From: Bispira polyomma
Lineage: Eukaryota
Assembly: GCA_965649765.1 (NCBI GenBank)
Contig: OZ287753.1
Span: 7,502,001 to 7,566,000 of the forward strand
DNA length: 64,000 nt
Direction: 5' to 3'
The translations under genes were made by a program, and so were the position numbers. Shown piece after piece: positions 583 through 64,000 of this stretch. Under the pieces are notes generated by a model. It was given only the letters and a program-made list of their open reading frames with translations, ran no database searches and was not told the origin of the DNA. Position 1 is the first letter of the stretch. Each line of letters starts with the position of its first letter.

Positions 583-696
583 CTGTAAAGCCAGCAACAC
601 ATTCGCATGAGAAATCATTTACGAGATCAGTACAGACTCCTTTGTTTTCACATGGCTCTGGAGCACATTCATTAATATTGGTTTCACAGGTATCAC
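583..696 (-). CDS. Array EGF exon [38 protein letters not shown]
   Basis: 114 nt, ttttag/gtacat. Confidence 0.88.
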
Positions 697-6600: not shown

Positions 6601-9600
6601 TAACATCAAAGAGCAGGAATTAAGAGATTTAGCAACTACAAATATCCAGTCAGTCTATGTTTACTTGGCCATCTCAAGAAAGTTACCAAGCATGGCTAAA
6701 TATACTCTTCACTAGACTTGGATAATAGTCAACTTCTGATGTGGAAAAAGAGTAAAACTATTTTGAACACCACCTATATTTTGCAAATAGTTGTGTAGAA
6801 TGATTTTAGAATATAAAACCATTTCTTATATGTGCTTTAATTCTTGTTTGAATAAATATCAATCATTTCTAAGGAATATTTTGGGGGTCTTTCTTTGAGA
6901 GGTGTTTATAGTCTGGTCTAACTGTATTAACTAAAAGCCTTGGATATAAATAGAAATTAACATTGACAAAGAACAAGTTCGGATCTTTCTTTAAATAGTC
7001 TTTATAGACAGGTCCCACTGTATTAACCATACATGAGGACAACTAAGGGAACTTCTTGGCTTCTTCATGCATATTTTATCTCATTAATGTACCTGTAAAG
7101 CCAGCAACACATTCGCATGAGAAATCATTTACGAGATCAGTACAGACTCCTTTGTTTTCACATGGCTCTGGAGCACATTCATTAATATTGGTTTCACAGG
7201 TATCACCTAAAATCACAATTGTTAGTCATAATAATAATATACTTGTATCACAAACTATGCTTTTCAGAACAAATTAGTAAAAGTGGGAAATTTACTATGT
7301 CACATCAATTAGTGTTTTAGTGATGTTTCTTAAATAGAAATACAATCTAAAATTAAAAAGTATGACGGTCAAACATTGAAAAATAAGTAACATCAAAGAG
7401 CAGGAATTGAGAGATTCAGCAACTACAAACATCCATTCAGTCTACGTTTACTTGACCATCTCAAGAAAGTTACCAAGCATGGCTAAATATACTCTTCACT
7501 AGACTTGGATAATAATCAACTTCTGATGTTAAAAGGAGTAAAACTATTTGGACACCATCTATATTATGTAAATAGTTGTGTAGAATGATTTAAAAAAAAT
7601 AAAACCATTTGTAATATGTGCTTTAATTCTTGTGTTTGAATAAATATCAATCATTTCTAAGGAATATTTTGGGGGTCTTTCTTTGAGAGGTATTTAGAGT
7701 CTGGTCTAAGTGTATTCACTAAAAGCCTTGGATATAATTATGAATTAACATTGAGAAGGAACACGTTGGGCTCTTTATTTAAGAGGTCTTTACAGACAGG
7801 TCGCACTGTATTAACCATACATGAGGACAACTAAGGGAACTTCTTGGCTTCTTCATGCATATTTTATCTCATTAATGTACCTGTAAAGCCAGCAACACAT
7901 TCGCATGAGAAATCATTTACGAGATCAGTACAGACTCCTTCATTTTCACATGGCTCTGGAGCACATTCATCAATATTGGTTTCACAGGTATCACCTAAAA
8001 TCACAATTGTTAGTCATAATAATAATATACTTGTATCATTAAACTATGCTTTTCAGAACAAAATAGTAAAAGTGGGAAATTTACTATGTCACATCAATTA
8101 GTGTTTTAGTGATGTTTCTCAAATAGAAATACAATCTAAAATTAAAAAGTATGACGGTCAAACATTATAAAAATAAGTAACATCAAAGAGCAGGAATTAA
8201 GAGATTCAGCAACTACAAACATCCAGTCAGTCTATGTTTACTTGGCCATCTCAAGAAAGTTTCCAAGCATGGCGAAATATACTCTTCACTAGACTTGGAT
8301 AATAGTCAACTTCTGATGTGGAAAAAGAGTAAAACTATTTTGAACACCACCTATATTTTGCAAATAGTTGTGTAGAATGATTTTAGAAAATAAAACCATT
8401 TCTTATATGTGCTTTAATTCTTGTGTTTAAATAAATATCAATCATTTCCAAGGAATATTTTGGGGGTCTTTCTTTCAGAGGTATTTATAGTCTGGTCTAA
8501 CTGTATTAACTAAAAGCCTTGGATATAAATAGAAATTAACATTGACAAAGAACATGTTCGGGTCTTTCTGTAAGAGGTCTTTATAGAGAGGTCTCATTGT
8601 ATCAACCATATATGAGGACAACTGAGGGAACTTTTTGGCTTCTTCATGCATATTTTATCTCATTAATGTACCTGTAAAGCCAGCAACACATTCGCATGAG
8701 AAATCATTTACAAGATCAGTACAGACTCCTTCATTTTCACATGGCTCTGGAGCACATTCATTAATATTGGTTTCACAGGTATCACCTAAAATCACAATTG
8801 TTAGTCATAATAATAATATACTTGTATCACAAACTATGCTTTTCGGAACAAATTAGTAAAAGTGGGAAATTTACTATGTCACATCAATTAGTGTTTTAGT
8901 GATGTTTCTCACATAGAAATACAATCTAAAATTAAAAAGTATGACGGTCAAACATTGAAAAATAAGTAACATCAAAGAGCAGGAATTGAGAGATTCAGCA
9001 ACTACAAACATCCATTCAGTCTACGTTTACTTGACCATCTCAAGAAAGTTACCAAGCATGGCTAAATATACTCTTCACTAGACTTGGATAATAATCAACT
9101 TCTGATGTTAAAAGGAGTAAAACTATTTGGACACCATCTATATTATGTAAATAGTTGTGTAGAATGATTTAAAAAAAATAAAACCATTTGTAATATGTGC
9201 TTTAATTCTTGTGTTTGAATAAATATCAATCATTTCTAAGGAATATTTTGGGGGTCTTTCTTTGAGAGGTATTTAGAGTCTGGTCTAAGTGTATTCACTA
9301 AAAGCCTTGGATATAATTATGAATTAACATTGAGAAAGAACACGTTGGGCTCTTTCTTTAAGAGGTCTTTACAGACAGGTCGCACTGTATTAACCATACA
9401 TGAGTACAACTAAGGTAACTTCTTGGCTTTTTCATGCATATTTTATCTCATTAATGTACCTGTAAAGCCAGCAACACATTCGCATGAGAAATCATTTACG
9501 AGATCAGTACAGACTCCTTCATTTTCACATGGCTCTGGAGCACATTCATCAATATTGGTTTCACAGGTATCACCTAAAATCACAATTGTTAGTCATAATA

Positions 9601-12600
9601 ATAATATACTTGTATCATTAAACTATGCTTTTCAGAACAAAATAGTAAAAGTGGGAAATTTACTATGTCACATCAATTAGTGTTTTAGTGATGTTTCTCA
9701 AATAGAAATACAATCTAAAATTAAAAAGTATGACGGTCAAACATTATAAAAATAAGTAGCATCAAAGAGCAGGAATTGAGAGATTCAGCAACTACAAACA
9801 TCCAGTCAGTCTATGTTTACTTGGCCATCTCAAGAAAGTTACCAAGCATGGCTAAATATACTCTTCACTAAACTTGGATAACAGTCAACTTCTGATGTGG
9901 AAAAAGAGTAAAACTATTTTGAACACAACCTATATTATGCAAATGGTTGTGCAGAATTATTTTAAAAAATAAAACCATTTCTAATATGTGCTTTAATTTT
10001 TGTGTTTAAATAAATATCAATCATTTCCAAGGAATATTTTGGGGGTCTTTCTTTGAGAGGTATTTATAGTCTGGTCTAACTGTATTAACTAAAAGCCTTG
10101 GATATAAATAGAAATTAACATTGGGAAAGAACACATTGGGGTCTTTCTTTAAGAGGTCTTTACAATCAGGTCTCACTGTGTCAACCATACATGAGGACAA
10201 CTAAGGGAACTTCTTGGCTTCTTCATGCATATTTTTTCTCATTAATTTACCTGTAAAGCCAGCAACACATTCGCATGAGAAATCATTTACAAGATCAGTA
10301 CAGACTCCTTCATTTTCACATGGCTCTGGAGCACAATCATCAATATTGGTTTCACAGGTATCACCTAAAATCACAATTGTTAGTCATAATAATAATATAC
10401 TTGTATCATTAAACTATGCTTTTCAGAACAAATTAGTAAAAGTGGGAAGCTTACTATGTCACATCAATTAGTGTTTTATTGATGTTTCTCACCTAGAAAT
10501 ACAATCTAAAATTAAAAAGTATGACGGTCAACCATTAAAATAAATAAGTAACATCAAAAAGCAGGAATTGAGATATTTAGCAACTACAAACATCCATTCA
10601 GTCTATGTTTACCTGACCATCTCAAGAAAGTTACCAAGCATGGCTAAATATACTCTTCACTAGACTTAGATAATAATCAACTTCTGATGTTAAAAGGAGT
10701 AAAACTATTTTGGACACCACCTATATTATGCAAATAGTTGTTTAGATTGTTTCAAAATAAAAACATTTCTAAAAAAAGTGAAATTTTTTAGAAAGATTTT
10801 AATAAAATTAAGAAACATAATTTTATTGGAGAGTTGAAATTGTTTTCCATATACAGTTGACATACCTTCAAATCCCTCAACACAATCACATGAATATTCA
10901 TTTATTCCATCTACACAAACACCTTCATTTTCACAAAGATGACTAACACAATCATCAATGTTTGTCTCACATCTTCCTCCTAAAATAAGTATCAATCAAT
11001 ATCATTAACAACCTTTTGCATTTACATCACATTACAGATAATAAAATACCAGTTGTAAATTATGATTCTAGTATAGGATGGTCACATTATTTTTTTACAT
11101 AAAAATTTCACTGCAATTTATTTTCTTGTTGGCACAGAAATCAGTAAATCGTACTCATGCTAACATGAGACATGTATATTTGCAAGCTTTTTTTCCAAGA
11201 GAGGTCTTGATATATAGATGTATAATGTCAAGTTGTAAGACTGATCTACACAAAGTTTGATATATTTATTTGAACATTAAAACAGTAAAGGCTAGGAAAT
11301 GGTGGATTTTGGGTTACATGTATAGGTCCAGATAATAACTCCAACCCATTAAAATTCAACTTTTAATCTCAAATGATTCATCACACTCATATAATGTCAA
11401 GTTAATATCTGATGACATATTAAATATTAAAGAGTGTCCCTGATATAAAAGACCCAAAAACCATTATGTTTGTGTTGCATGTTTAGATCTAAATCCTAAA
11501 TCAAGATCACATCTATCAAAATAAAGAATGTGGGTATTATGTCAACAGTAATATTATTAAATTTGAAAAATTATAAACTAGTGACATGAATAAGAAGTAT
11601 GCCAAAATGTCATTGTTACCCCAAAGCGTATTAAATGCTTGGAGAAAGATTTTACTAAAATAAACAAATATAATTTAATGGAGAGTTGAAATTGTTTTCC
11701 ATGTACAGTTAACATACCTTCAAATCCCTCAACACAGTCACATGAATATTCATTTATTCCATCTTCACAAACACCTCCATTTGCACAACGATGTCCAACA
11801 CAATCGTCAATGTTTGTCTCACAGCTTTTTCCTGAAATATATATCCATAAATATCATTGACAACCCTTTGCATTTGCATCACATTAGAAATAGCAAAATA
11901 CCGTTGTTTTGAGGACAATGATATTGCCATCAACAAAATGCATATTAGGTGTTTTTCAGGGATAAAATGTATAAATTATTTTCAAATATAAAATTTGTCT
12001 GATCTAGTTTTTCTGTGACAATCATATAAAAAAAAGAATATTTAATAAAAAAAGACATCAGGAACAAATTAAAGTGGCATATTACCATGTATACAACAAC
12101 ACTAATGTGTTCAATAGTATTTAAAAATTGTGAATTGAATCATTGAATTTTATTTGTAATTGAAGTACAGAAGACCATTACATAAAATTATGAAAACAAA
12201 TCGTGGACATGGATAACTTATATCAAGGAATACACTCTATTTTGAAGAATGGAAATACTGATAAAAAGTTAGTTGTATTTTGCATCAATATTAAAATCTA
12301 GTATAAAGATAATAATTTTTAATATACACTTTGTGACCACATGGGAAAGGGCCAACTTTATTGAACAATAACAGTCAACTGGCGACTTTGACATTAACTA
12401 ACTGGGAGAGCACCTGCATCTTGAGGTGAGACCCAGTTGGCATGTTATGCAACACTTATACCGTGGTCACACTGGGCTTACGTTTTGATTCGCACAAAAA
12501 ATGGCTAGCGCAAGGTAAAACATAGTGAAATGTAATGAAACACAAGCAGAATGTTGTAAATGTAAGTAAACATAAAAATGGGTGAACAAGATGGTCCCTT

Positions 12601-17100: not shown

Positions 17101-20100
17101 TTGTTTTTTGGGGGGCCAGAAAGTTGCATTGCCCAGTGGGGTTGTGCTGCTGGTATTTATGTTGGTGTGATTTGTGAAGTCTCAATTACCTTCATGTCCT
17201 GACACTGGTGTATTCATCTTCACCTTTATACCCCGACACACAGTTACAGGTGTATTCATCCTTATCTTTATACCCTGACAGACACAGGTGTATTCATCCT
17301 CACCTTTATACCCTGCCACACAGTTACAGGTAAATTCATCCTTACCTTCATATTCAGGCAAACTCCTATGTATTCATCCTTACCTTCATATTCTGGCAGA
17401 CACCTGTGTATTCATCCTTACTTTCATATTCTGGCAGACTCCTGTGTATTCATCCTTACCTTCATATTCTGGCAGACTCCTGTGTATTCATCCTTACCTT
17501 CATATTCTGGCAGACTCCTGTGTATTCATCCTTACCTTCATATTCAGGCAGACACCTGTGTATTCATCCTTACCTTCATATTCAGGCAGACACCTGTGTA
17601 TTCATCCTTACCTTCATAGTCAGGCAGACACAGGTGTATTCATCCTTACCTTCATACCCTGCCACACAGTTACAGGTGAATTCATCCATACCTTCATATT
17701 CTGGCAGACACCTGTGTATTCATCCATATCTTCATACCCCAACACATAATTACAGGTGTATTCATCCTTACCTTTATATTCTGGCAGACACCTGTGTATT
17801 CATCCTTACCTTCATATTCAGGCAGACTCCTGTGTATTCATCCTTACCTTCATATTCAGGCAGACTCCTGTGTATTCATCCTTACCTTCATATTCAGGCA
17901 GACACCTGTGTATTCATCCTTACCTTCATATTCAGGCAGGCTCCTGTGTATTCATCCTTACCTTCATATTCAGGCAGACTCCTGTGTATTCATCCTTACC
18001 TTCATATTCAGGCAGACTCCTGTGTATTCATCCTTACCTTCATATTCAGGCAGACTCCTGTGTATTCATTCTTAACTTCATATTCAGGCAGACACCTGTG
18101 TATTCATCCTTACCTTCATACCCTGCCACACAGTTACAGGTGTATTCATCCTCCCCATCGACACATGCGCCACCATTCTGACAGGGGGAAGACTCGCATT
18201 CATTGAAGTCACAAGGGGTGCCTAAACAGACCAAACAATAAGCTTGTAACCAACTTTAACACAGGTCAAGTTGTACTACACTACTACTGAGAACCGTTCT
18301 TATTTCTCAGCAAGTTAAAGCGCATCGTGTTTGTATGTGTGTCTGGGGTGTATTCTATAACCTTCCTAAAAAAATAGGAAACACAAATGAAGTCATCGAT
18401 TTGAATTGATTTTCAGTATGACTATTTAACAACTGCTTATTATGTGGTGATTGACAGTTCATTAGTGGAGAAAAGCAGTACATTGTGGTTTGTCAAGGTT
18501 TTTTCTGTAGTGCAAACCACCAGCCGTCAGCAATCTTTACACCCTCTGGATATTAAACCTGCCACCCAGTCTTAAGTTGCTTCACAATGATTTAGACAAA
18601 TAGTGACTTTTAAATAGTACAGTATTTGATCTGTTGGACAAAGATATATTGCGATTCTTTTGCTACTAAATTGTTAATGTCTAGTCTGTGCACATGTATT
18701 GTATTCTGCATTTTCAACGCCTTATTGATATAAGGCATGCTCCAACGACAGAATCGATTAACCAACTGAGAAAATAATAGCAAGATCATAATAAAGGATG
18801 TGGAGGTGTCCAGGGAGGGAATTAACAGGAGTTTGTTTTCTCCTAAACCCAGAGTGTCTTTCTAGTGATCTAAAATCAACTGAGAGACTATTATATAACA
18901 CCGGGGCATGGTTCTAGATCCAACCATCTTATTGGGTTTAACAGAGAAAACAAAGTTTTCTCTCTTGGGGTTACTATAAGACAGATGAGTGGCAAGGTAG
19001 GAAGGCTGTTGAAAGCTTTAAAAGTCGTAACATAGAACACACATAGCAAAAACATACTGAGGTTTCTAATATTATATGTGTCAAAGCATTATATACAGTT
19101 TATTAGACTAATCAACCGATGTCACAAAGGGTGTGCTGACAAAATGTCGATGGACAAAATGCAACTTTGTGAAGGTAAACAAAATGCTGGCCCGTTTTGG
19201 AGTTGAACAAAATGCCAGTGATGTCAAAACATCTTCCAATATGTCAATATCTCATAGGAATGTGGATGGTTGGCTACAGGATATTCCGTCTTAGTATCAG
19301 TTACTAGAGCACCCGTGCAATGCAAAGCAACTCTCTGAGAACTAGATCAAGTTTTCGACTGCCATTTCATGGCATTTGCAGCCACCGGTGACAGAGTGTG
19401 CACCATTGGCAAGTTAAACACATAACAAATAAAAAGAATCAGTTAGTAATTGTGATTTCTTCATTTCTCATTGGTGGGAATAAGTGTGAATTAGTGGGTG
19501 TTAGTAGTTTTGTGTTAGGTCCTCGGCATGTTCATATCAAAAAGGCCACGAAACAAAATTTGGTAGATGCCACGAATATTGACAAATGTTTGTCTATGAG
19601 ACCAGGCCATTATATCATACAAAAATACAAAAAGAATCGTCTTTTTATTTAGTTTGTGGTTGTATTGATTAATTCTATAGCTGTACACAATATGATAACT
19701 TTGAGTTAATAGTTTTAGCGTGTACCGGGGGAAGACTGCTACGGGAAAAATACCATAAAATTTTGTAAAAAATCAACGTTTATGGCTACATCTTTACGTT
19801 TAATTGTTACTATTTATGTTTTTCTACCCTTTTTACATTAAATTTGAGTAATTTTACTGTTTTATGTTGTGAATTTAGCTAGAAAATTATAATAGCCGAT
19901 TATCGCCCACTTCGTTTGGCGGGAGTGGGCCGTACTCTACTATAATATTTTGTAATAAGATCTACATCTGCACGGTTATTTGTTGGTATTTATGTTTTTT
20001 CTAACCTTTTTACATTAAATTTGAGTAGTTTTGCTGTTTTATGTTGTGAATTTAGCTAGAAAATTATAATAGCCGATTATCGCCCACTTCGTTTGGCGGG

Positions 20101-23100
20101 AGTGGGCCATACTCTATAGATCTATAATATCTGTAATAAGATCTACATCTCCACGGTTATTTGTTGTTATTTATGGTTTTCTCCCCTTTTTTACATTGAA
20201 TTTGAGAAATTTTGCTGTTTTATGTTGTTAATTTAGTCTCGTTTTGCTGTTCTATATTGTAAAAATTTTTCCAAATTCTGTACATTTATTTATTACTATT
20301 TATGATTTTTCTACTCCCTTTACATTTACTTTTTATCTCATTTTGCTGTTCTATATTGTAAATTACATGTTGGTGTGGTTGTACTTAGCTTAAGGTCAGG
20401 CTATAGTGTGGGGTGCTAGGGTGCCCGTGAGTCGCCCACGGGACGAAGAATTATGCGGTGAGTTGTAGGGACAAGCTTTCGGAGGCTCCCCACTGTTGAG
20501 TTCAGGTTAAGGGCTTCTTTTTTTCTACAACCTCACTAGGCATGTTTCTGCTTTGGGTTGTCCTTTTTTCAGCACTTTTTGCTGTGGCTATGGCTCATAG
20601 GTATGAGTTGTTGCATCACAGTGTTGCTCATACATCAGCAACCTCATTGGCTAAAGTGGCAAAAAATTTTCATACACATGTTCTTGTCGTAAATTTCCTA
20701 CCACCATTAATGGAAGAGGTCTTGTCTTGTTACTTTTACTCGCCGGCGATGTGTCCCTTAACCCTGGTCCTGTCATGCTCGGGGTGTTAAATGCTAGATC
20801 CGTGAGGAACAAGGGTCCACTCCTTGCAGATATTGTGACATCGCACGACCTCGACTTCCTTTGTGTTACTGAGACCCATGTCCGTCTATCTGATACGGAT
20901 AGCTTCCTACGGTCTGTTACTCCTCCAGATTTTGTGTTTCCTCAAACGCCTCGTCCCTCACGGATTGGTGGCGGTGTTGGTTTCTTCATCAGATCCTCCT
21001 ACAAACCACATAAAATAGATTCTCCTGTCTATCAGTCCTTTAAAAATATGGTGGTGTCAATTGGGCTTCATGGCCGCTCACTGTTGCTTGCCTGTGTCTA
21101 TCGCCCCCCAGGATCATGTACCTGTAATTTTTTAGAAGAATTTATGTCTTTTGTTGGTTTCTTGTCGTCCATTAACAGTTCATATCATATCTGTGGTGAC
21201 TTTAACATCCATGTTGATGCACCAGTTGGTGACGGTCATAAATTTATGACCTTTCTTGATTCATACGATTTAAAACAGTTAGTTAGACAACCTACCCATC
21301 TGCATGGTCACATTCTGGACCTTATTTTATCTCCTTGTGATCAGGATACTATTGTGGATGTCAAAGTCTGTGATTTCATATCGGATCATGCATTAGTCAA
21401 ATGCTCAATTGCCACTCCCCCTCAGGTGGCTCATATTCCTAATAAAGTGCATTATAAGAGGTACCACCGTATTAACATGTCTGACCTTCGTACTGATCTT
21501 GAGAGTACTTCCTTTATTAAGTCACCTACCAATTCTGTAGCCAAACTTTATGAACAATACATACATGACTTGGGTGATGTACTAGATAAGCATGCACCAC
21601 TTGTATCCAGAATGTCAAAGAAAGAATCTGTGCATTGGCTCTCTGATTCTTACCGACGGGCTAAATCTCTCAGGCGCCAATATGAAAGAACTTGGCGAAG
21701 GGCCAAGAATCCATTAAATAGAAGTCGACTACATCGCCAGATTGCTCGGTGCAATGTACTTGTTAACGAGGATAAGTCGGTGTATCACAGTAAACTTATC
21801 TCTGACAACAGTCACAACTTCAGGAAGCTGTGGCACGAACTGCGCAAGACCCTTAATATGGATACCAATGTGGCACTCCCGTCCCATGATTCCTTTTTTT
21901 CGGACAAAATTAAGAGAATTAGGGATACTTTTATTGTCTCTGGAACTAAAATTGATGTTCATCCTCTTTCTGATCCGCCAGAAATTATTGCCTTTGCCAG
22001 AGTCTCTGAAGATGATGTTAGTAAAATAATAAGTAACTCGCCTACAAAATCCTGCATGTTGGATCCATGGCCAACATCTCTTATTAAAGAATGTAGTGAT
22101 ATATTACTACCATCCATTACAAAACTTGTAAACTGCTCACTTACGGAGGGACTTCTACCTGATGGTTTTAAAACAGCTGTGGTTACTCCTCTTATTAAGA
22201 AGGCTTCTCTTCCAGTTGATGACCTGAAGAATTATCGCCCTGTATCTGGTCTTAGTTTCATATCAAAACTGGTTGAACGCGTGGTTGCTAGGCAACTGTT
22301 AGATCACATCTTTGTCCACGACTTAGACAACCCATACCAGTCTGCGTATAAAACTGGTCATTCGACTGAGACAGCTCTTCTGTCTATAAAAAATGAAGTT
22401 CACTTATCTTTGTCAAGAGGGGAACCTACTGCCCTGGTATTGATCGACCTCTCTGCTGCCTTTGACACCATTGATCATTCCACGCTTCTCAGTTGTCTTC
22501 AGACTTGGTTTGGAGTTACAGGCTCTGTTCTTAAATGGTTCACTTCCTACTTAACTGATCGTTATCAGTCGATAAAAATTGGCTCTACTCTGTCCGATCT
22601 TTGTAAACTCTTGTTTGGTGTCCCTCAAGGTTCTGTTTTGGGCCCTCTGTTGTTCTCATTATACACTGCTCCTCTCAGATTGGTTATTGGCAAATACACA
22701 GGAATAAAGTTTCATTTTTATGCAGATGATACCCAAATTTATGTACACCTATCCCATAAAAACACATCTACTGCCTTTGAACAGTTGAACAGGTGTCTTG
22801 ATGATGTGAAAGAGTGGATGTCAACTGGTAAACTCAAACTTAATCCCGACAAGACTGAGTTCATAATCTTTGGCTCAAAACAACAGAGGGATAAGTTGAA
22901 AGCATTGTTTCCAGTTGACATCCTGGGTAGCCCTTTCAGTCCAGCTGATTCTGTCAAGAACCTGGGTGTATGGTTTGACTCTGACTTTTCTTTCTCTAAA
23001 CACGTTCAGAGTGTCTGCAAAAGCTGTTTTATGCAACTCCGTGACTTTAGACGTGTCAGATGGTTTCTCACTTATGATGCTTCTATACTTGTGGCCAATG

Positions 23101-26100
23101 CTTTTGTCAGTAGTAGACTGGATTACTGCAATTCACTTTTCAGGAGTCTCTCAAAGTTTAATTTACGCAAATTACAATGCATTCAAAATAGTGCAGCTAG
23201 AATTGTGTCAAACACCAGTCGATACACTAGTATAACTCCTGTTCTTAAGAAATTGCATTGGCTCCCTGTTGGACAGCGTTCAGTGTTTAAGACAGCTACA
23301 CTTGTTTATAAGTTTCTCCACACTGGGTTTCCAAAGTAAATGCCCCATATCTTTCCACTTACAGTAGTTCCTACAATACCAGATGTAGTCAGAGTGGTAG
23401 TAATTTCCTTGTTGTTCCGAAGTTCCACCCATCTACTCAAAGGTCGGTAAAACAGTTTGGTCACAACTTTGCTTTTGATGCTCCCATTGTTTGGAATGCT
23501 TTTGCTGATGTGATTTGTGCTTCTAAAGCATACCCACCTTAGTCTCAATCATCCCCCGGCGCGCTCTATGTTGCTGACCCTTTGTCTGTCCCTTGATTTT
23601 GGAAATTGGATAACTGTCTTTTGTGCTGGTGCGCCTTAGAGTCCCCTTTGTTAAGGGGAGATTAAGCGCAATAAAAGTCTAATTACAATTACAATTTGAC
23701 CGACCTATAAGTTCCTATTTACATAAATATCATTATTTTAAAATATTTCCATTTTTTTTGCCGTTGTATAGGACGTAGTAATGTGCCCTGTCAGATTTGT
23801 TAAGTTTTACTAATGGTAACTGCTCTGTCGCTCACCGTGTGTATCATCAGTAAAAAAAACCCAAAAGAATAGTCAAGGACAGATAATTTGGTTCATAAAA
23901 TGTTATGACATTGTTCATGGTACTGGTATATCAATTATTATATCAATTGAAGTTATGTATTCACTGTTTTAATAGAACTGCCATCCATTTACTAGAGTCA
24001 TCGACCGCGGTTCGGGGGTCAATTTGAAAATTGTTTGTAAATGTAAGGTCTTTAATATGTTTTGATGTTTTGACAATGGGGGCATTTTGTCCACCCACAC
24101 CCAAAAATAGCCCGACGTTAAGTCCACCTTTGCACAATTGACCGACATTTTGTCTATCGGAATTTTGTGCTGGATTCGTCACAAATATTGACCTTGTAAA
24201 AGTTCAGGTCAAGGTCACAATTTGATAGGCTTCCAATAATAAACCAAATCTAGTTGCTTACCCAATATGCTGTATGGGAGGAGCAGGGTGGTGACTCTGT
24301 GTTGTGACTCAACTAAAATCTTGATATCCTTAACACCTAATTATAGGTGTATGTCAACAGGATTTGATAACTAAATTATTATAAAATGTACCTAAATTAT
24401 GCTTACTTTCCCGAATTTGTCTTCTATAAACAGGATAAAAAGGTTCATTACAAATAAAAATGGGAGACTTTTAATTTATTATGATCTCAGAAGAAAACAT
24501 TTAATCCTTCTACAAGTTGTCTGGGATTAAATCCAATAATAATAAACACACTGGCACCTTAAGTGGGGCAGCCATTAAGTCCACAAGGATAACACCAAGT
24601 CAACATTCGAACTTTAATTAATAGCTGGTGTTTATTATTTGTAGATCTCCTTTTCTGCTACACTATATTCTACTGTAGATTGAGTTGTTCACCTTCAAGC
24701 ATTTTGCTAGGATATTTACTCACTCCATTACATGTATTGTGTCCGGCTTTTTGACAGTACCAAAGTCCTTACCTCACACTTACAATAAAAGCCTTCTCAG
24801 GTGACATGAATAAGCCCCACTCTTGTGAGCAAATCCTTTTTACAAAAGCACCACCACAGAGTTTTGGTCAAATATTTGACCTTCCCGGTGTCAAAAGAAG
24901 AAGTAGTAACAACATAGTGTTGATAAAAGAAGTCAATGAAACTCATTAAACAAGGTAAATAAAAAATACATGCCGAATAATTGTAAACGTTTACGATTTC
25001 TTATTTTGATATGACAATTCTAACCCTATTTATAGTCACAGAGTACACACACTAACTAAAAGCTTATCCACCTGATCCCCCTTCTATTCAGGACTACTGA
25101 CATACATAGCATGTCAGCCATTTTAAAACATAGAAAACATTTTATTCACAAACATTTTCTATTAAAACTGTTTCTTTAAAAACTACTATGTAAACCTGGT
25201 CACTGTGCTCTAAGGAAAGAATATAAGTTTCTTTGGTATATTGTATTTATTTTTGTACAAAGACTGCTTTAAAAGTCGTAAAAACAAAGATGAAAAAAAT
25301 CATGATTTTGACAATACCAGGATTTTGTCCAGCCACCCCAAATATTGACCGACATTTTGTCCACCCCAGCAAATTTCACCGGCATTTTGTCCACCGGCAT
25401 TTTGTTTGATCACCAGAATATAAAACCGAAATAAATGGAATTTTTAACAGAGGTACTAAGTTATTTTTAGCAGTGTTTTATCATTATATATAATGTGACA
25501 GTTGCTTTTCAGTTCCTACATACGTCATCGGAGGGATAGAGGCATTTCTTCCCCATCATCGCCCCCCCCCCTCCCCCCGTGCCCCCTATTTCATTTTGTG
25601 ATGAGGTCAAATGGTCAAAAGCCCCTCTTTCCCCGCCGTTCTCTATATGCATACAAATTGTTGAAAAAATGAGCTCACTTAAGTGGGTGTTCCATTATAG
25701 TTATTTGGTCCCGGACCTTTCTAATTTTGAGGTCCGGGACGAGTTTGTATAGGTCCGAGGCAAAACCGAACATGGTATTCAGGAAGGATATTCAACATGT
25801 TTCATATTTCAAAAAAGTTGCCCAGACTATCTTCTCGATCCCTAAAAACGGGAAGGTCGGCATCGCTGAATAAGTTAAATCTGACTGTCATTACGTTAGC
25901 ACTGGCCCGTTAAAACGTATAGGTCAGGGGGAGAAAACGGGCTAAACAGGGGATCAGGAAGAATATAAGACAATTTTCGTCACATAGCAGTCCCGACCTT
26001 GATTATGACAAGTAAGATTGTGACGGACTGGGGGTAGATCCTATCACCAATACGATCGATCCTAGGGTGATGCGTCTGATCCTATCGTCCGATCCTGGTA

Positions 26101-29100
26101 AGTTCGATTCTAACCTGGGTCGGCGACCCTGGGCCGTCTTAGTATGGACTTTAGTTTCGATTGTGGTCGTTGTCCTGTTAAAACGGGATGCAATCAGTTG
26201 GATCTGGAAGGTCGCCCCGCACTTACATTTTCCTGCCCAAAATATAACATTTATTGATTTTTCGCCCCTATCTCTAAATCTGGCCCACATTGCCAATCGT
26301 ACTTGATACTGGAACACCCACCTAACATTAGATCTTTATTCTGAAGATGTCACTGCCTATTATCTTAAAAAAGTGAAAACTGTAAAAAACTGTTCATGTC
26401 TTTGTAAAATAAACTTTTCAAGTGTCCAAAGCTGTTTGACAAAAACCTAATTTGCCTGTAAATATCGATCAACTTCTATTAAACTAAGGGATTCTGTCCT
26501 AATCATAAATGCTGAATGGGGTGTTCCCCACGATTCACTGTGCTCTACCAAAGGGGGGAAAAAACACATGGATTCGTCACCTGGGACTCTGTGTGTTATG
26601 GCTGGGTCCAAATTTTGCGTTTCACGAAAGTGACGCCAATGCAAACTAGGCGATCTACAAATTGCACTCATCAGCACTAAATATGCATGTTTTTTAGCAT
26701 TCGCCATGCTTTATCAACTCGACCCTAACCCAATGACAACTTGTTATTTATGCAATTAATGTGGTAAGGTGGCAGTTTTTTTCAGTCAGTGCATTTTTCT
26801 TGCAATGGCGATACATGCAACAATGGCGATTACTGCACAGATGATCAATTCTGCCCACTGTAATCTCGATTGAGTTCTTCTAAACTGGCTTACAGGTCAA
26901 ATATAGTGATCGGCGATCATTTAAATCTGTAAATTGAAATCGTACTTTGGGAATTTTTATCTGTCTCGAGTTAGTATCAGCTACATGGTTAAAAAAGGGG
27001 GGTACGTCCTGGAAAAGTGCCCCATGGAGAACAAGAGAACATCACTCTGGTCAGGTCACTTTCATTGCCACCACTTTGGTCAAACTCAAAATAGTGAAAA
27101 ACGTGACCCACGGCAAAAATGGTGGTGACGAAAGATGATATCCACTATGACATTTCTGTACTCCTATGTTACAGTATAATGTCCCTACCCACTATGATAT
27201 TCCTCCACTTCTATCTCACACTACAATGTCTCTATCCACCATGACATCCCTGTACTCCTATTTTACACTATAATGTCCCTACCCACTATGACATCCCTGT
27301 ACTTCTAGATTACACTATAATGTCCATATCCACTATTACATCCCTGTACTCCTATATTACACTATAATATCCTTATCCACTATGACACCCCTATACTCCT
27401 ATTTTACACTATAATGTCCATATCCACTATGACTCCTACATTACACTATAGGGGGCCGCGGTGGCTTAGTGGTTAGCTAGCATTGCGCTTCACAATCACT
27501 GGTGTCTCACCTCTGGACAGCCTGAGTTCGAATCCCGTCGATGCCTATGTGAGAAAGGTGGTAGTTCCTTACTGTGGGCCGCTGGTTTCAGTGCAGAACC
27601 TTGATCAACTGTATGCGTGTTTCTTCCAGCATTTCTAACTACCCGTCCCAATATAACCTAAACAGATACTAGAGTGGACGTTAAATATCCAAATTCAAAT
27701 TCTAGATTACACTATAATGTCCCTACCCACTATGATATCGCTGCACTCCTGCCGACACTCCTCCCAGCGCCAGGACCTCCAGTACGAGTACTCTCTGTCT
27801 GTAGAACACCAGGGGGAGTCATTGTTGGTTGTGATACACACACTGTACTCATTGTCCTCGTAGATAAAGGGGATCACACAATCACTGTGAGGCACCCAAT
27901 TACATTCTGTCCTGATATCATCTGTAAAACATGGGTAGTGTAAGCACTGTACACTAAATCAAATTGTATAAAGGTTACATCAGGTTATCATGAAACCATT
28001 TGCTGAATTTCTTTGAGAATACGAAAACTGTCTATTCTGCATGGTACACTTGGTACACATGGTCGACACTCCTATCGCCAGAACCTGCATTACAACAACT
28101 AGCTAATCTCTCCTGAGTATACCTGTACTTAAATACTCTCTCCTGAGTACACCTTTTCTAAGCTATTCTTACCTCAGTACTTACTTATTCCATCTTTGGT
28201 ACACCTGTACTTACCTATTCTCTTCTCAGTACACCTTTCCTTAGCTAGTCTCTCATCATTAAACCTGTACTTACCTATTTTCTCCTCAGTACACCTAAGG
28301 GGCCGCAGTGGCCTAGTGGTTAGCAAGCATTGCGCTTCACAATCACTGGTCTCTCACCTCTGGGCGGCGTGAGTTCAAATACTGTCGATGCCTATGTGGG
28401 AAAGGTGGTAGTTCCTTACTGTGGGCCGCTGGTTTCAGTGCAGAACCTTGACCAACTGTATGCAGTGTTTCCTCCAGCGTTTCCAACTATCCGTCCCAAT
28501 ATAACCTCAAACAGGTACTAGAGTTGACGTTAAATATCCCAATTCAAAAAAAAAATTCCTCAGCACACCTGTACTTACCTATTCTCTCCTGAGTATACCT
28601 TTCATTAGCTATTCTCTCATCAGTACACCTGTACTTACCTATTCTCTCCCCGGTACACCTGTACTTACCTATTCTCTCCTGAGAACACATTTCCTTAGCT
28701 ATTTTGATCTCAGTACACATGTACTTACTTATTGTCTCTTTGGTAAACCTGTACTTACAAATTATCTTCTCAGTACACCTGTCCTTACCTATTATCTCAT
28801 CAGTACACCTGCCCTTACCTGTTATCTCCTCGGTACACCTGTCCTTACCTATTCTCTCCTCAGTACACCTGTACTTACCTTTTCTGTCCAGAGTACACCT
28901 GTACTCTGTACACTCCTCCCACCTCCAGGATCTATACCACACATACGCCTCATCAGTACTACACCATGGGTAGTCACGGTCATCATAGTTTGCCGTTGTA
29001 CACCCCTCATACTGGGTACCATCATAGGTGAATGGAATTTGGCAATCAGCATGGGGTATCCACCCACAAGTCTCCGTAGTTACTAAAATATACAGTTTCA

Positions 29101-31775
29101 GGTTATAGCATTTCCAATTTTTTATAAACAAATACAGTTACATGTTACCAAAAAGATGATTGAATATGTCATGTTACATCAGTTGGTTGGTGAATTTTTT
29201 TCACTTTGAAATGAGATCCCATTCTCCATCTGACCTTGTGCAATCTAATCAGAATTCCAACAGTTCACGTCAAATTCAGTTATTATATGGTAGATGGACA
29301 GGAAAAGGTCAAACAAATTCGTCAAGATTACAAAATCAACTGGCACAACAAGTAAGTATTCAGTTTGCTCCTATAAAAGAGGAAGCGAAGGAAACCTCGC
29401 AGATTTCATGCCACAAATTCAGAAATTTAGAAAGACTGTAAAAATCGAAAAATGGGATTTACTTTTTTGTAGTTTAATATGGATGATAATACAATTTATA
29501 CAAAACCCCATTAGTCATTATTAAGGTCTCTCCAAAGCTGTCTGAGATGTGATATTATAAAGTACATCACTATAGGAATAACACCAGACAAAGCATGGTA
29601 TATGCAGAATTTTACTATGATTCAATGTTTAGGCCCACAGAGGCGTAAAATTTAGGCCCACAAAGGGGTCAAATTCTGCTCATACCATGGTTTGAAGCGT
29701 GTTATTTCTTTTTCCAGCATGACAAAGTAATAAAAAAAATTGAAAATTTAACATAATAAATGTACATAAAAATAGGCCATTCCATCTTACTTACCTTGCC
29801 AGGGGAACTTATGTAACAGCCAATAAGTAAATGCTGAGTTTTACCAACGCTTTTGGCCAATTAAAATTGCCGACACATCTGTTTTATGCTAGAATGTGAT
29901 ATTTATGTTCTTGTACCATATTTAGTTGTAGAGAGACAATAGTCATGTCACCCATATGACCTTGGCCAAAGAACCAGTGTAATAATTAACCTAAAAGTGT
30001 CATATCAAACTTCTGTGAATCCTTAGTTCCCCCATAATTTATAACATTCAACAACCTGATACATTTTGTAAAGATGTCTGCATTATATCTGAAAAATGTT
30101 CGCCGTGAGCTTGGTAAAATTGAGTGAAATAATAAAAAAAGACTTACTACAAGCTTGAGTTTCACTGGCTTGTCCTGAAGGAGAAACGGTAAACTTTTTA
30201 TAGTAATAACAAATTTTTTCTTTTTTTTTAAATATTGCATTGTATAAAATATATACATAATAATTACAATGCAATACAGAGGTATAATACAGAGGTACAA
30301 TACAGAGGTACAATACAGAGGTACAATACAGAGATACAATACAGAGATACAATACAAAGGTACAATACAGAGGTACAGTACAGAGTTATAATACAGAGGT
30401 ACAATACAAAGATACAATACAGAAGTAAAATACAAAAATACAATACAGGGGTACAATGCAAAGATACAATACAGAGGTACAATACAGAGGTACAATACAG
30501 AGATACAATACAAAGGTACAATACAGAGGTACAATACAGAGTTACAATACAGAGGTACAATACAAAGATACAATACAGAAGTAAAATACAAAAATACAAT
30601 ACAGGGGTACAATACAGAGGTACAATACAGAGGTACAATACAGAGTTACAATATAGAGGTACAATACAGAGGTACAATACAGAGTTACAATATAGAGGTA
30701 CAATACAGAGGTACAATACAAAGATACAATACAGAAGTAAAATACAAAAATACAATACAGAGGTACAATACAAAGATACAATGCAGAAGTAAAATACAAA
30801 AATACAATACAGAGGTACAATACAAAGATACAATACAGAAGTAAAATACAAAAATACAATACAGGGGTACAATACAGAGGTACAATACAAAGGTACAATA
30901 CAGAGGTACAATACAGAGATACAATACAAAGGTACAATACAGAGGTACAATACAGAGTTACAATACAGAGGTACAATACAGAGATACAATACAAAGGTAC
31001 AATACAGAGGTACAATACAGAGTTACAATACAGAAGTACAATACAAAGATACAATACAGAAGTAAAATACAAAAATACAATACAGGGGTACAATACAGAG
31101 GTACAATACAGAGGTACAATACAGAAGCACTAGATACAATAACACAATACAACACAGCAATACAGTGTAATAAAACAAATACTGTATCATAATAATACAT
31201 CAATTATTGAAATATACATGTACTTTATATCCTTACTATATTACATTACTACCTCTACACTGAAATAACGAGATATCACTTTCAATATATCCCTATTTGT
31301 ATAACAAAGTAAAATATATGTTTATACATATGCTTTTTAATATCAATAATGAGAAATACTACTAGTTGAAGGAATGGACGATCAGAAAACTAATATTTCT
31401 ATATAACATAGAGTCGTTTTAAAACACTTTAATCTATTAAAATTTATTCAAATATTACTCATACAAAAGGAAATTTTTTTTTTTTTTTTGTGATTAAAAG
31501 TGTGTTTATGAAATCGAACATCCAGTTTAACAGAAGTTCAGATAATAGAGGCTCTACTATATTTTCATTACAATGAATATCCTATACAATTAGCAGGGTT
31601 TTTTTTTTTTTTTAAACAAAATATCTTTCACACCATTGTGTATACATTTTTAACAGCTAGTCTCGTCATGTAAAAGATAAAATATCTATATATATTAAAA
31701 GATACTTAATACTTAATTCGCTTTACCTATTAACCACAGTATGCCTACAAGGCGATGTATCATTGGCTTTTCCAT
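583..31775 (-). CDS. Spliced gene for a secreted or cell-surface protein: signal peptide + 2 FN2 domains + >=17 Notch/fibropellin-type calcium-binding EGF repeats; 21 coding exons in window, 3' end beyond left edge
   Basis: All exons have canonical splice sites, phase-1 junctions and join in frame: [43 protein letters not shown]...(FN2)x2...[14 protein letters not shown]...(EGF)n. Confidence 0.88.
1371..1484 (-). CDS. Array EGF exon (TNIDEC/CENEG variant)
   Basis: 114 nt, ttttag/gtacat. Confidence 0.88.
2162..2275 (-). CDS. Array EGF exon (TNINEC/CENEG variant)
   Basis: 114 nt, ttttag/gtacat. Confidence 0.88.
2956..3069 (-). CDS. Array EGF exon (TNINEC/CENEG variant)
   Basis: 114 nt, ttttag/gtacat. 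Confidence 0.88.
3131..3948 (-). repeat. 3' LTR (~820 bp) of the Gypsy element
   Basis: Minus strand starts TGTTACA after the PPT, has TATATATAA (~3708-3716) and AATAAA (~3210-3215), ends ...CCCGTCA at host junction. Confidence 0.75.
3131..5091 (-). mobile_element. 5'-truncated Ty3/Gypsy LTR retrotransposon (Gmr1-like domain order): RT C-terminus + RNase H, PPT and 3' LTR
   Basis: ORF 4142-5092 with MPFG, YVDD and DAS...E...TDH...ADALSR; PPT aaggggggagg (3949-3959) abutting LTR start TGTTACA; host repeat resumes ~5092. Confidence 0.92.
4142..5092 (-). CDS. pol: Gypsy pol fragment: reverse transcriptase C-terminal half + RNase H
   Basis: YVDD catalytic motif, RNase H D-E-D residues, stop directly after ADALSRSCS. 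Confidence 0.92.
   Translation of the reverse strand: MAKEISAFVTPDGLYQYKVMPFGMKNSQATFQRLMNICLRNLEGVEVYVDDIVIFSDTWEEHLKRLEQVLFQLKQANLTVNLSKSDFVKAKVVYLGHVVGHGVVTPIKAKVESIIDYPIPRNKKSLMRFLGMLGYYRKFCKNFSDVTAPLTELLKKNVKYHWSETCQKAFDKVKNVLCSEPVLTAPDFNRPFRLAVDASDVGAGAVLLQTDDEDIEHPICYFSTKFNVHQKNYSTIEKECLALILAIKHFDIYISSSSKPTIVYTDHNPLVFLHKMKNKNRRLLNWSLVLQEYSLQIEHVKGKDNICADALSRSCS
5508..5621 (-). CDS. Array EGF exon (TNIDEC/CENEG variant)
   Basis: 114 nt, ttttag/gtacat. Confidence 0.88.
6301..6414 (-). CDS. Array EGF exon ([10 protein letters not shown] variant)
   Basis: 114 nt, ttttag/gtacat. Confidence 0.88.
7093..7206 (-). CDS. Array EGF exon (TNINEC/CENKG variant)
   Basis: 114 nt, ttttag/gtacat. 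Confidence 0.88.
7881..7994 (-). CDS. Array EGF exon (TNIDEC/CENEG variant)
   Basis: 114 nt, ttttag/gtacat. Confidence 0.88.
8672..8785 (-). CDS. Array EGF exon (TNINEC/CENEG variant)
   Basis: 114 nt, ttttag/gtacat. Confidence 0.88.
9460..9573 (-). CDS. Array EGF exon (TNIDEC/CENEG variant)
   Basis: 114 nt, ttttag/gtacat. Confidence 0.88.
10251..10364 (-). CDS. Array EGF exon [38 protein letters not shown]
   Basis: 114 nt, ttttag/gtaaat, phase 1-1. Confidence 0.88.
10866..10979 (-). CDS. EGF exon 6 (114 nt) [38 protein letters not shown]
   Basis: cbEGF consensus, ttttag/gtatgt. Confidence 0.9.
11718..11831 (-). CDS. EGF exon 5 (114 nt) [38 protein letters not shown]
   Basis: cbEGF consensus, ttcag/gtatgt. 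Confidence 0.9.
12459..13095. mobile_element. Non-autonomous PIF/Harbinger-type MITE
   Basis: TIR core TGGTCACACT...AGTGTGACCA, TTA on both flanks (12456-58, 13096-98). Confidence 0.7.
13502..13615 (-). CDS. EGF exon 4 (114 nt) [38 protein letters not shown]
   Basis: Six Cys in place, ttcag/gtaggg. Confidence 0.85.
13925..13941 (-). pseudogene. Remnant 3' end of a destroyed EGF exon with intact donor
   Basis: TGTTGAGGTTTTTGAAG|gtatgc plus ~110 bp of intron homologous to that following EGF exons 3, 5 and 6; rest of exon replaced by unrelated DNA. Confidence 0.7.
14093..14157. repeat. (TA)n microsatellite
   Basis: Pure TA run. Confidence 0.98.
14537..14770. repeat. 5 copies of a ~47-56-bp unit (agcaatatggtaaatataaccaat...)
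   Basis: Directly visible. Confidence 0.85.
15328..15441 (-). CDS. EGF exon 3 (114 nt) [38 protein letters not shown]
   Basis: cbEGF consensus, ttttag/gtatgt. Confidence 0.9.
16040..16258 (-). mobile_element. Degenerate tRNA-derived SINE
   Basis: Minus-strand A box GGTGGCCTAGTGG, B-box-like GGATCGAATC, tail related to other SINEs here. Confidence 0.65.
16302..16415 (-). CDS. EGF exon 2 (114 nt) [38 protein letters not shown]
   Basis: cbEGF consensus, AG/GT, phase 1-1. Confidence 0.9.
17186..18113. repeat. 38/42-bp minisatellite derived from EGF exon 1 3' end + splice donor
   Basis: Minus unit ...TATGAAG|gtaaggatgaataca...; some units retain exon sequence CACCTGTAACTGTGTGGCAGGG. Confidence 0.92.
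18114..18221 (-). CDS. EGF exon 1 (108 nt) [36 protein letters not shown]
   Basis: cbEGF consensus; gtttag acceptor, GAAG|gtaagg donor. Confidence 0.9.
18380..18570 (-). mobile_element. Highly degenerate SINE fragment
   Basis: ggagaaaagcagtaca...gtcaaggtt matches reverse complement of the SINE core. Confidence 0.45.
19720..23695 (+). mobile_element. L2/CR1-group LINE, near full length (5' boundary approximate)
   Basis: APE-RT ORF, 3' stem-loop GCGCCTTAGA...TTAAGCGC, (TTACAA)n tail; ~176-bp repeats in presumed 5' region. Confidence 0.88.
20727..23339 (+). CDS. LINE ORF: 2A-like motif + APE endonuclease + reverse transcriptase (premature stop near C-terminus)
   Basis: LNARS, TETH, GDFN, SDH (APE); [28 protein letters not shown] (RT); homology continues past stop at 23339. 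Confidence 0.93.
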   Translation: MLLLLAGDVSLNPGPVMLGVLNARSVRNKGPLLADIVTSHDLDFLCVTETHVRLSDTDSFLRSVTPPDFVFPQTPRPSRIGGGVGFFIRSSYKPHKIDSPVYQSFKNMVVSIGLHGRSLLLACVYRPPGSCTCNFLEEFMSFVGFLSSINSSYHICGDFNIHVDAPVGDGHKFMTFLDSYDLKQLVRQPTHLHGHILDLILSPCDQDTIVDVKVCDFISDHALVKCSIATPPQVAHIPNKVHYKRYHRINMSDLRTDLESTSFIKSPTNSVAKLYEQYIHDLGDVLDKHAPLVSRMSKKESVHWLSDSYRRAKSLRRQYERTWRRAKNPLNRSRLHRQIARCNVLVNEDKSVYHSKLISDNSHNFRKLWHELRKTLNMDTNVALPSHDSFFSDKIKRIRDTFIVSGTKIDVHPLSDPPEIIAFARVSEDDVSKIISNSPTKSCMLDPWPTSLIKECSDILLPSITKLVNCSLTEGLLPDGFKTAVVTPLIKKASLPVDDLKNYRPVSGLSFISKLVERVVARQLLDHIFVHDLDNPYQSAYKTGHSTETALLSIKNEVHLSLSRGEPTALVLIDLSAAFDTIDHSTLLSCLQTWFGVTGSVLKWFTSYLTDRYQSIKIGSTLSDLCKLLFGVPQGSVLGPLLFSLYTAPLRLVIGKYTGIKFHFYADDTQIYVHLSHKNTSTAFEQLNRCLDDVKEWMSTGKLKLNPDKTEFIIFGSKQQRDKLKALFPVDILGSPFSPADSVKNLGVWFDSDFSFSKHVQSVCKSCFMQLRDFRRVRWFLTYDASILVANAFVSSRLDYCNSLFRSLSKFNLRKLQCIQNSAARIVSNTSRYTSITPVLKKLHWLPVGQRSVFKTATLVYKFLHTGFPK
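25683..26322. mobile_element. Harbinger-type MITE
   Basis: TIR GTGGGTGTTCCA...TGGAACACCCAC flanked by TAA. Confidence 0.75.
27140..27726. repeat. ~49-bp minisatellite derived from FN2 exon 2 3' end + donor (SINE inserted)
   Basis: Unit cactataatgtccctacccactatgacatccctgtactcctattttaca mirrors the exon/intron junction ATCATAGTGG|gtagggacattatagtg. Confidence 0.85.
27451..27701 (+). mobile_element. tRNA-derived SINE
   Basis: A box TGGCTTAGTGG, B box GTTCGAATCC, (AAATTC)n tail, ~15-bp flanking direct repeat. Confidence 0.9.
27727..27921 (-). CDS. FN2 domain exon 2 (195 nt)
   Basis: [17 protein letters not shown]...PWCST...WEEC; gttttacag acceptor, GTGG|gtaggg donor, phase 1-1. Confidence 0.9.
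28105..28878. repeat. 30-bp minisatellite derived from FN2 exon 1 3' end + donor (SINE inserted)
   Basis: Minus unit GTACAGGTGTACTGAGGAGAGAATAG|gtaa versus exon end GTACAGGTGTACTCTGGACAGAAAAG|gtaa. Confidence 0.9.
28299..28556 (+). mobile_element. tRNA-derived SINE (same family)
   Basis: A/B boxes, same body, TSD-like tcctcag(t/c)acacct. Confidence 0.9.
28879..29082 (-). CDS. FN2 domain exon 1 (204 nt)
   Basis: [16 protein letters not shown]...PWCST...WEEC matches the FN2 C-x-x-PF-x-Y...C...PWC-x-T...W-x-x-C pattern; tattttag acceptor, AAAG|gtaagt donor. Confidence 0.9.
30148..30174 (-). CDS. 27-nt microexon (G)QASETQAC, carrying the probable signal-peptidase site T-Q-A|C
   Basis: Acceptor tttctccttcag, donor gtaagt, phase 1-1. 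Confidence 0.72.
30271..31140. repeat. 13-bp satellite (tacaatacagagg)n in intron 1
   Basis: Directly visible, with recurring variant blocks. Confidence 0.95.
31727..31775 (-). CDS. Coding exon 1: signal peptide start [16 protein letters not shown](G)
   Basis: ATG at 31775-31773, hydrophobic h-region, donor ATAG|gtaaag in phase 1; joins the microexon in frame. Confidence 0.72.
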
Positions 31776-42613: not shown

Positions 42614-44854
42614 GTCACCATTAGCAGTCTCCTGCTGATAATGCCACTGACCTATACACACAGTACTGCACTGACCTGCTGTCTCTTATAGAACGCCATG
42701 CGCCATGTAAATCAAAGACATTGAAGAAGCCAGCACCTGAGTGGATCACCAGTAATTATCGTGAAATGAAGATGCTGCGCAGGCAAGCCGAACGAACATG
42801 GAGCCGAAACAAAACAGCTACAAATAGATCTAGACTACGCCAATGGATCACCCAGTGCAACAACACTATAAATGACTCAAAACGTGCCTACTATGCTAAC
42901 ATGATATCTCAAAGCGAGGGTGACCCGAAGAAACTTTGGCAAAAACTAAATAACACCCTCCACCGCAAAAAACAGACTATACTACCCGAAAATTCCAATA
43001 GCAAATCACTGGCAAACATTTTTAGTACTTTTTTCACTGATAAAATTACCAGAATCCGTGACGGTTTTACATTAGCTGTCCCAAATGCCCCTTTACCAAC
43101 AGCTCCACCAACCGTCTTCAACTGTTTCTCCACAGTAACTGTTGATGAAGTCAGGCAAATTATACTGGCATCACCCGTAAAATCTTGCTTGCTAGATCCG
43201 TGGCCCACATTCCTTGTCAAAGAATGTATTGACATTTTATTGCCCTCAATCACAAAACTTATCAACCTCTCGTTGATAAATGGTGTCTTTCCAGATGATT
43301 TTAAAAAGGCTATTGTCACTCCTTTAATAAAAAAACCTTCTCTTCCAAAGGCTGACTTGAAAAATTACCGTCCTGTCTCAGGCCTTTGCTATATCTCTAA
43401 GTTGGTAGAACGCGCGGTTGCCTTACAGATCAAACAACATGTTGATGTCAGCAATCTGTCCAATAAGTATCAGTCAGAGTACAAAAGTGGTCATTCTACT
43501 GAGACTGCACTTCTCTGCATCAAAAATGATGTTCATACATCTTTATCCAAAGGTATGCCTACTGCCTTAGTACTGCTGGATCTGTCAGCAGCCTTTGATA
43601 CTATTGATCACAAAGTTCTTCTTGAGTGCCTATCGTCCTGGTTCGGTATCAGCGGTATGGCGCTTAAGTGGTTCACGGCATATTTATCTGATAGATTCCA
43701 ATCAGTCAAAATTGGCAATATCTTATCCGACCCAACATGTTTAAAATTTGGTGTTCCCCAAGGTTCCGTCCTGGGTCCCATTTTGTTTTCCATGTACACC
43801 ACTCCACTCAGCAAGATTATTGCTGCATACAAAAACATAAACTTTCACTTCTATGCTGATGATACCCAACTGTACATCCACCTTACACCTGACTCTGCCC
43901 AGGTAGCTTTCACTTCCTTACAGAACTGCCTTGTTGATGTACAACACTGGATGGCAGCAAATAAACTCAAGCTGAACCCTGAGAAGACTGAGTTTATTTT
44001 GTTTGGCTCCAAGTCGTAACGGGAAAAATTGTCCAGCTGTTTTCCACTTGACATTCTTGGCAGCAGGTTTTTTCCAGCTGACAAAGTACGAAACCTGGGT
44101 GTGGTGTTCGACTCTGAATTTTCCTTCTCGAACCATGTCGCATTGGTGTGTAGATCATGTTTTGTTGGCCTCCGTGATTTCAGGCGGATTCGACGCTATC
44201 TTTCAAAATCCACTGCAATCACTGTTGCCAATGCTTTGATCAGCAGCAGGCTTGATTACTGCAACTCTCTGTTCCGTTCCTTATCTCGTAATGATCTCAG
44301 ATGCCTTCAGAATATCAAACACTCCTTGGCACGTATTGTGACCAAAACATCAAAATTTTCCCACATTACTCCTGTACTGAAGTCACTACACTGGCTCCCA
44401 ATAAAATATCGTGTTGCTTTCAAAACAGCCACAATAATATATAAATTTCTTAATTCTGGATTACCCACTTATTTTAGCCCCCATCTATCCAAATATACAT
44501 GCTCAGTCAGGACTAGGCGCAGTAACCCTGATAAATTAACATTCCCACTTTCGACCCTCGCATCCACAAATCCAAAGTTCAGTTCAATCACTGCCTAGCT
44601 CATGATGGCCCCCTCATTTGGAACAGCCTACCTGATCATGTGCGCCTGGCTCAAACTTTCTCCTCTTTCAGGAGTAAGCTGAAGGCCTTTTCCACCTTAG
44701 CCGTCGCAACCATCTACGGTAGTCTCCCTGGTTACGACTTCCATCCGCCCACTATTTTTGATTTGCGATTAACGTTTTTGGTTTGTTGCGCCTTAGAATT
44801 TGTTGTACAAAGATTAAGCGCTATAAAAGTACGACTAGATTAGATTAGATTAGA
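42614..44854 (+). mobile_element. 5'-truncated L2/CR1-group LINE (RT with in-frame stop at ~44019)
   Basis: [14 protein letters not shown]; (TAGAT)n tail; empty site visible in the inverted copy at ~45820-45850. Confidence 0.9.
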
Positions 44855-62375: not shown

Positions 62376-62419
62376 CTGAAATACAAGTTGGTACAGGGAA
62401 GGCGACTCACAAAGTGACA

Positions 62420-63973: not shown

Positions 63974-64000
63974 TTGAGAGGCGACAGGGATCTGCAGCCC

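Follow-up and report, generated by a model that had tools for sequence, protein, structure and literature searches.

The analysed window comprised 64,000 nt of the Bispira polyomma genome (contig OZ287753.1, positions 7,502,001-7,566,000), and the genome searched comprised 1.035 Gb in 75 contigs. The minus strand of the window carries a large modular gene, in which domain profiles identified two FN2 exons followed by EGF exons, with boundaries predicted from the domain, the AG and GT consensus and phase. A 30-bp minisatellite starts at the end of the first FN2 exon and repeats its splice donor down the intron. The features of the locus are listed below, with a slash marking the exon-intron junction in donor motifs.

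29082-28879, minus strand: FN2 exon 1, 204 nt, phase 1-1, six-Cys module, predicted boundaries
28905-28557, minus strand: 30-bp minisatellite (Tandem Repeats Finder: 11.6 copies, 78% matches, no indels)
28873-28881, minus strand: first donor AAG/GTAAGT, GT at 28878, top score of the array
28813-28821, minus strand: best alternative donor CAG/GTAAGG, GT at 28818, which would add 60 nt or 20 aa
28297-28556, plus strand: high-copy SINE in unit 11, with a 14-bp target-site duplication (28283-28296 and 28557-28570)
28296 to about 28100, minus strand: distal half of the 30-bp array, about 7 units
27921-27727, minus strand: FN2 exon 2, 195 nt, phase 1-1, predicted boundaries
27750-27139, minus strand: 47-bp donor-spanning array of FN2 exon 2, split by a second SINE at 27451-27705
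18221-18114, minus strand: first EGF exon, phase 1-1, predicted boundaries
18120-17189, minus strand: 38-bp donor-spanning array of the first EGF exon, with 42-bp units at its far end
16542-569 and on past the left edge of the window, minus strand: further EGF exons of the same gene, found by pattern match

Both FN2 exons matched Pfam fn2 above the cut-off (E 1e-7 for exon 1 and 2e-9 for exon 2) and are 57% identical across their aligned part. The fn2 domain of exon 1 sits in a minus-strand ORF of 197 aa (29137-28547). Each module (28880-29080 and 27727-27921) holds the usual four Cys and an extra flanking Cys pair, a six-Cys pattern also present in two of the four protein hits checked (P0005 and P0114). 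A single pattern picked up 46 EGF exons, the farthest lying about 29.5 kb beyond the left edge of the window, and 45 of these end in a phase-1 GT; additional EGF-like exons reach about 59 kb to the left. With fn2 matches above the cut-off, exons of phase 1-1 and EGF exons under purifying selection, the gene is real. The host of the array is a large animal gene of cell-surface type.

Around 40 of the EGF exon-plus-intron units are near-identical and lie in tandem at about 0.8 kb each (569-10383 in the window and 28 kb leftward), several with a weak donor, CAG/GTACAT. A retroelement pol fragment recurs among them, at 4145-5095 and at approximately -1.4 to -2.4 kb and -7.1 to -8.1 kb. The 5' end of the FN2/EGF gene was not located, and an upstream search for a signal-peptide exon returned a single unconvincing candidate at 35284. 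A strong minus-strand donor, AAG/GTAAGT, lies at 29795, about 700 nt upstream of FN2 exon 1, with no exon assigned to it.

A search of representative proteins gave 187 hits at E<=0.001, with identity of at most 51% among the 150 listed; 11 of these were inspected by eye and all 150 were screened for a 10-residue periodicity. None of the six hits looked up was an orthologue, these being FN2 proteins of fish, frog and coral or unnamed proteins. Likewise, no array-free paralogue was found in the genome: 20 candidates yielded three matches, two of which were this gene itself. Two long intronless frames were seen elsewhere, one of 1368 aa with 13 FN2 matches (C9:36837717-36841190) and one of 2415 aa with many Sushi matches (C3:25393221-25400417).

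The repeat unit of the FN2 array consists of the last 25 bases of FN2 exon 1 followed by GTAAG, so that the first unit spans the exon-intron boundary. Including the part beyond the SINE there are about 17 copies, with a weak higher-order period of 90 bp. The donor positions recur at 28878-30k and are all in phase 1. Among the 10 downstream positions, AG/GTAAG is intact in six (28848, 28818, 28788, 28668, 28638 and 28578), GT alone is kept in two (28758 and 28728) and GT is lost in two (28698 and 28608). The frame of exon 1 meets no stop over 10 complete units and into an eleventh, until a TGA at 28546-28544, past the T-run of the SINE tail; this stop, the first in frame, comes with the SINE. 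These results bear out the preliminary description, which had reported a 30-bp unit keeping frame and donor phase, a frame open through about 11 diverged units up to a SINE tail, and several units retaining AG/GTAAG (the peptides it quoted are units 1-3). Its proposal that successive donors lengthen the FN2-FN2 linker in 10-residue steps is also arithmetically sound, as each downstream donor, were it used, would add 10 in-frame residues.

An assembly artefact was ruled out because contigs from three DNA-like sequencing runs (X2, X3 and X4) cover 28531-29600 with 0 differences, in exon and intron alike. These runs represent two samples of one study and may derive from the source animal; as a view of allelic copy number, their identity to the window is limited further because contigs drop variants. 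Contigs of a further run (X1) aligned on the SINEs only. The array and its donor copies are true duplications. An origin from a dispersed repeat was unsupported, because the 30-bp unit matched nowhere else in the genome in a search that skips simple repeats.

Compared with the majority sequence of 25 copies, the SINE carries changes at 9 of 252 bases, and the array units differ from their commonest form at 39 of 300 bases, suggesting that the SINE likely inserted into an already older array. Beyond it, about 7 further units absent from the preliminary description run to about 28100. Three full units of this distal half are open in the unit frame, followed by an 8-nt deletion and decay; the half is out of frame and beyond in-frame reach from exon 1. 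As the SINE is young, the distal units made a poor control for sequence released from selection, and this use of them was abandoned.

Donor strength was scored by a matrix derived from 208 phase-1 donors predicted in this genome, a set biased by its selection via a prior matrix and from Cys-rich modules. The first donor (28878) scored 7.3 and the downstream positions -0.2 to 7.2. Donor 28818 came closest at 7.2, the three distal sites 28578, 28638 and 28668 scored 4.6, 28848 scored 2.8 and the rest scored 2.8 or less. In their match to U1 the three distal donors equal the first (9 of 11 positions). The predicted exon is 204 nt long at the first donor and 234-504 nt at the downstream donors. 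Recursive splicing via TAG/GT was ruled out, as the site is preceded by purine-rich sequence.

The open frame follows largely from how the array is built. Neither the exon codons nor the phase-1 GTAAG introduces a stop, and phase is preserved by the 30-bp period, as one period in three would do; the array thus began open, and the commonest unit still has no stop in the exon frame. Only the absence of later stop-making changes therefore needs explaining, and of the 90 possible single changes per unit just 7 create a stop. The simulation of the no-stop chance that had been proposed as a check gave, under neutrality, P = 0.08-0.28 for 10 units, making the open frame only mildly unusual. The value was 0.086 when the observed spectrum was permuted and 0.166 when a widespread T>G variant was fixed. 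Adding the three full units past the SINE lowered these figures to 0.057-0.21, 0.012 and 0.054, respectively.

The open frame is thus largely inherited, and the mild shortage of stops is the single result favouring coding use. It is weakened because units share changes (mean unit distance 5.6 at three-unit spacing versus 7.1 otherwise), because the feature was chosen for being stop-free and because other arrays with periods divisible by three look alike. Of 10 such arrays examined elsewhere, eight had an open unit frame, and three of these eight contain stop-free runs of at least 300 nt. The antisense frame, also without stops, offered no usable control because its openness is itself expected (P 0.68).

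Changes among units were spread across codon positions as 13/15/11, a flat pattern also expected of an unconstrained coding linker, so that this test cannot separate linker from intron. Distinct changes included 3 synonymous of 25, versus 4.0-5.9 expected. As a positive control we used 30 distinct EGF exon sequences from the same gene, where changes fell 29/30/48 by codon position and 38 of 107 were synonymous versus 20% of sites (P = 1e-4); the synonymous share differed between array and EGF exons (P = 0.03). The excess of synonymous or third-position changes that marks a coding repeat under selection was not seen in the array, and unit changes look neutral, as if free of protein-level constraint. 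Donor GT was kept in 8 of 10 units versus about 6.7 expected. The Cys of the repeat, kept in 10 of 13 units, is the sixth Cys of the FN2 module, as it is in exon 2, P0005 and P0114; extra copies of it would likely be unpaired.

The preliminary description held that the other two arrays of the gene mostly shift frame, and the counts agree. None of the 21 downstream donor-like sites of the 38-bp array is both in phase and stop-free, and all 7 downstream donor positions of the 47-bp array lie behind stops, GT being present in 2. Three neighbouring exons each carry a donor array (periods of 38, 47 and 30 bp at 17189-18120, 27139-27750 and 28100-28905). Such clustering goes far beyond what the surveyed rate would give (P 7e-5). 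Two of the three arrays are split by one SINE family.

The rate was obtained from a genome search with four module families and from 40 further 10-kb stretches of exon-rich genes, for which profiles were built. Grouping 774 domain hits by ORF and removing duplicates, array-internal hits and hits covering less than half of a model left 302 unique exons. The donor survey covered the 215 of these with a called donor, and the acceptor survey the 269 whose acceptor had 300 nt of room; the exons are a non-random set and were reused by the controls. Donor-spanning arrays occurred at 9 of the 215 other exons versus 38 of 1061 control positions placed 100-600 nt further into the intron (P = 0.69), and are thus not enriched over shifted controls. 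Including the three of this gene, 2 of 12 donor arrays have a period divisible by three. Acceptor-spanning arrays were found at 23 of 269 exons versus 42 of 1305 controls (P = 3e-4; loci L088-L181), a difference that boundary calling inside arrays may inflate, and 10 of these 23 have periods divisible by three (P = 0.21). Mirror images of the FN2 array were seen at LDLa acceptors in L091:980-1441, where a Cys-bearing 39-bp array stays in frame over about three units and then shifts register, and in L158:3534-3899, where 30-bp units give a stop-free run of 333 nt that enters the exon frame.

With a first unit that spans the boundary, a repeated splice signal and a real host gene, the FN2 array is a junction-spanning minisatellite of an already known kind, represented by human F7, 6-16 and CBS and by the 'mirages' of amphioxus, the latter reportedly described by Ebner et al. 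in 2010. The amphioxus mirages are minisatellites at donors and acceptors, and splicing is apparently undisturbed (PMC3087553). According to the available text of that source, those of Adh3 and of the globins BflGb6 and BflGb9 resemble the FN2 array as invertebrate boundary duplications found in several genes per genome, with many units keeping splice signals and with tandem duplication on donor and acceptor sides alike, as in this genome. RT-PCR suggests normal splicing there and length instability is documented (PMC3087553), whereas splicing of the FN2 array is predicted from sequence.

As far as the available text of PMC1557585 goes (Borensztajn et al. 2006), the 37-bp VNTR of F7 intron 7 is built in the same way, with a first unit spanning the exon-intron boundary, donors repeated down the intron and copies that look functional. 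It differs in having 5-9 near-identical units with 4 exon bases each, whereas the FN2 array has about 17 diverged units with 25 exon bases each, in frame and split by a SINE. Its donor use was established by RT-PCR, whereas that of the FN2 array is predicted. Although functional, the F7 copies are passed over in favour of the most upstream donor, and downstream copies strengthened to a consensus value of up to 91 failed to compete. The arrays of LMNB2 and PDGF likewise use the first donor only, while 6-16 (IFI6) and CBS splice from two donors in addition to the first, the most in any donor-repeat case listed in that text (PMC1557585). The minisatellites of 6-16 and of CBS intron 13 repeat a donor as the FN2 array does, but extra-donor use has been demonstrated for them, whereas the donors of the FN2 array are predicted; moreover, the CBS unit of 31 bp shifts the frame (VNTR notation of PMC2630376), unlike the 30-bp unit here. 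The available text of PMC10078293 contained no donor-repeating case, and we found no described case of a many-step donor ladder in the open-access literature.

Taken together, these data suggest that the first donor (28878) is probably used almost exclusively and that the copies in the intron are neutral. The last 25 bases of exon 1 with the splice donor would have multiplied in the intron to about 17 copies, through local tandem duplication followed by unequal crossover or slippage, and the SINE would later have split the array. Judging by precedent, the spliceosome would take the most upstream donor and leave the copies as neutral intron. Dominance of the first donor is likely from the behaviour of F7, LMNB2, PDGF and the amphioxus mirages, although the rule that the first donor wins by scanning was shown in mammalian cells and the host here is an invertebrate. 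It is favoured further because the first donor is the strongest and gives the shortest exon. Three points weigh against it, namely stops rarer than in the average neutral case, a score for 28818 almost equal to that of the first donor, and the two extra donors of 6-16 and CBS.

The last two points would fit leaky splicing as in 6-16 and CBS, in which the first donor is joined by one or two near ones (28818 and 28848) and 10 or 20 residues appear, unselected, in a minority of proteins. Donor 28818 would give a predicted exon of 264 nt, and the resulting in-frame products would be spared from decay, but the low score of 28848 and the failure of strengthened F7 copies to compete make this outcome unlikely. 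Conversion of the intronic minisatellite into protein is a bolder idea and a rather improbable one; here several in-frame donors or one distal donor would be used, the Cys-bearing 10-residue repeat would set the spacing between the FN2 domains and the SINE would have capped the ladder. If a distal donor (28578, 28638 or 28668) were the normal one, the repeats would form a freely drifting, stop-free Cys/Arg/Glu-rich coding linker of 70-100 residues. The run of 10 units with neither stop nor indel (P 0.01-0.09 in the harsher models) and the U1 match of these sites agree with this. However, the exon would reach 414-504 nt with a stronger donor inside it upstream, the stop-free run extends into units cut off by the SINE, and FN2 exon 2 and its relatives stop a few residues past the sixth Cys. 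The hits to the repeat part inspected among the 150 representatives listed were unrelated low-complexity repeats, with no orthologue-like hit, and we consider such a linker very unlikely.

The same mild shortage of stops, together with six intact in-phase AG/GTAAG copies in an open frame, would agree with a working ladder, with many donors used and the linker tuned in 10-residue steps. The rungs have not been maintained, though, since 4 of the 10 are degraded or gone and the SINE removed the distal half, and donor arrays show no excess of periods divisible by three. Two further arrays of like build in this gene break the frame. Each step would also add a spare sixth Cys, and known cases stop at two extra donors in the available text of PMC1557585. 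Taken as a whole, the indirect evidence speaks against such a ladder, which we regard as highly improbable. Predominant use of the first donor is thus our preferred reading. As all products of the array would be in frame and escape nonsense-mediated decay, the locus offers a clean natural test in an invertebrate of whether the first donor wins. Use of many donors, were it found, would exceed the two extra donors of the cited human cases and provide a route from an intron repeat to a protein linker of variable length.

Several other features were seen in the window. A 13-bp minisatellite of 66 copies at 30272-31125 has long minus-strand open frames and no visible exon link. Exons of a galactose-binding F5/8-type gene, which we take to be fucolectin-like, lie on the opposite, plus strand at 56553-56831 and 57967-58173, the first matching Pfam PF22633 (E 2e-9). 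The segments at 20655-23336 (plus), 42625-44840 (plus), 61391-64000 (minus) and 47365-49797 (plus) are presumably mobile-element sequence, comprising LINE-like reverse-transcriptase ORFs, a DIRS-like element with a tyrosine-recombinase ORF, and Harbinger-like transposase fragments.
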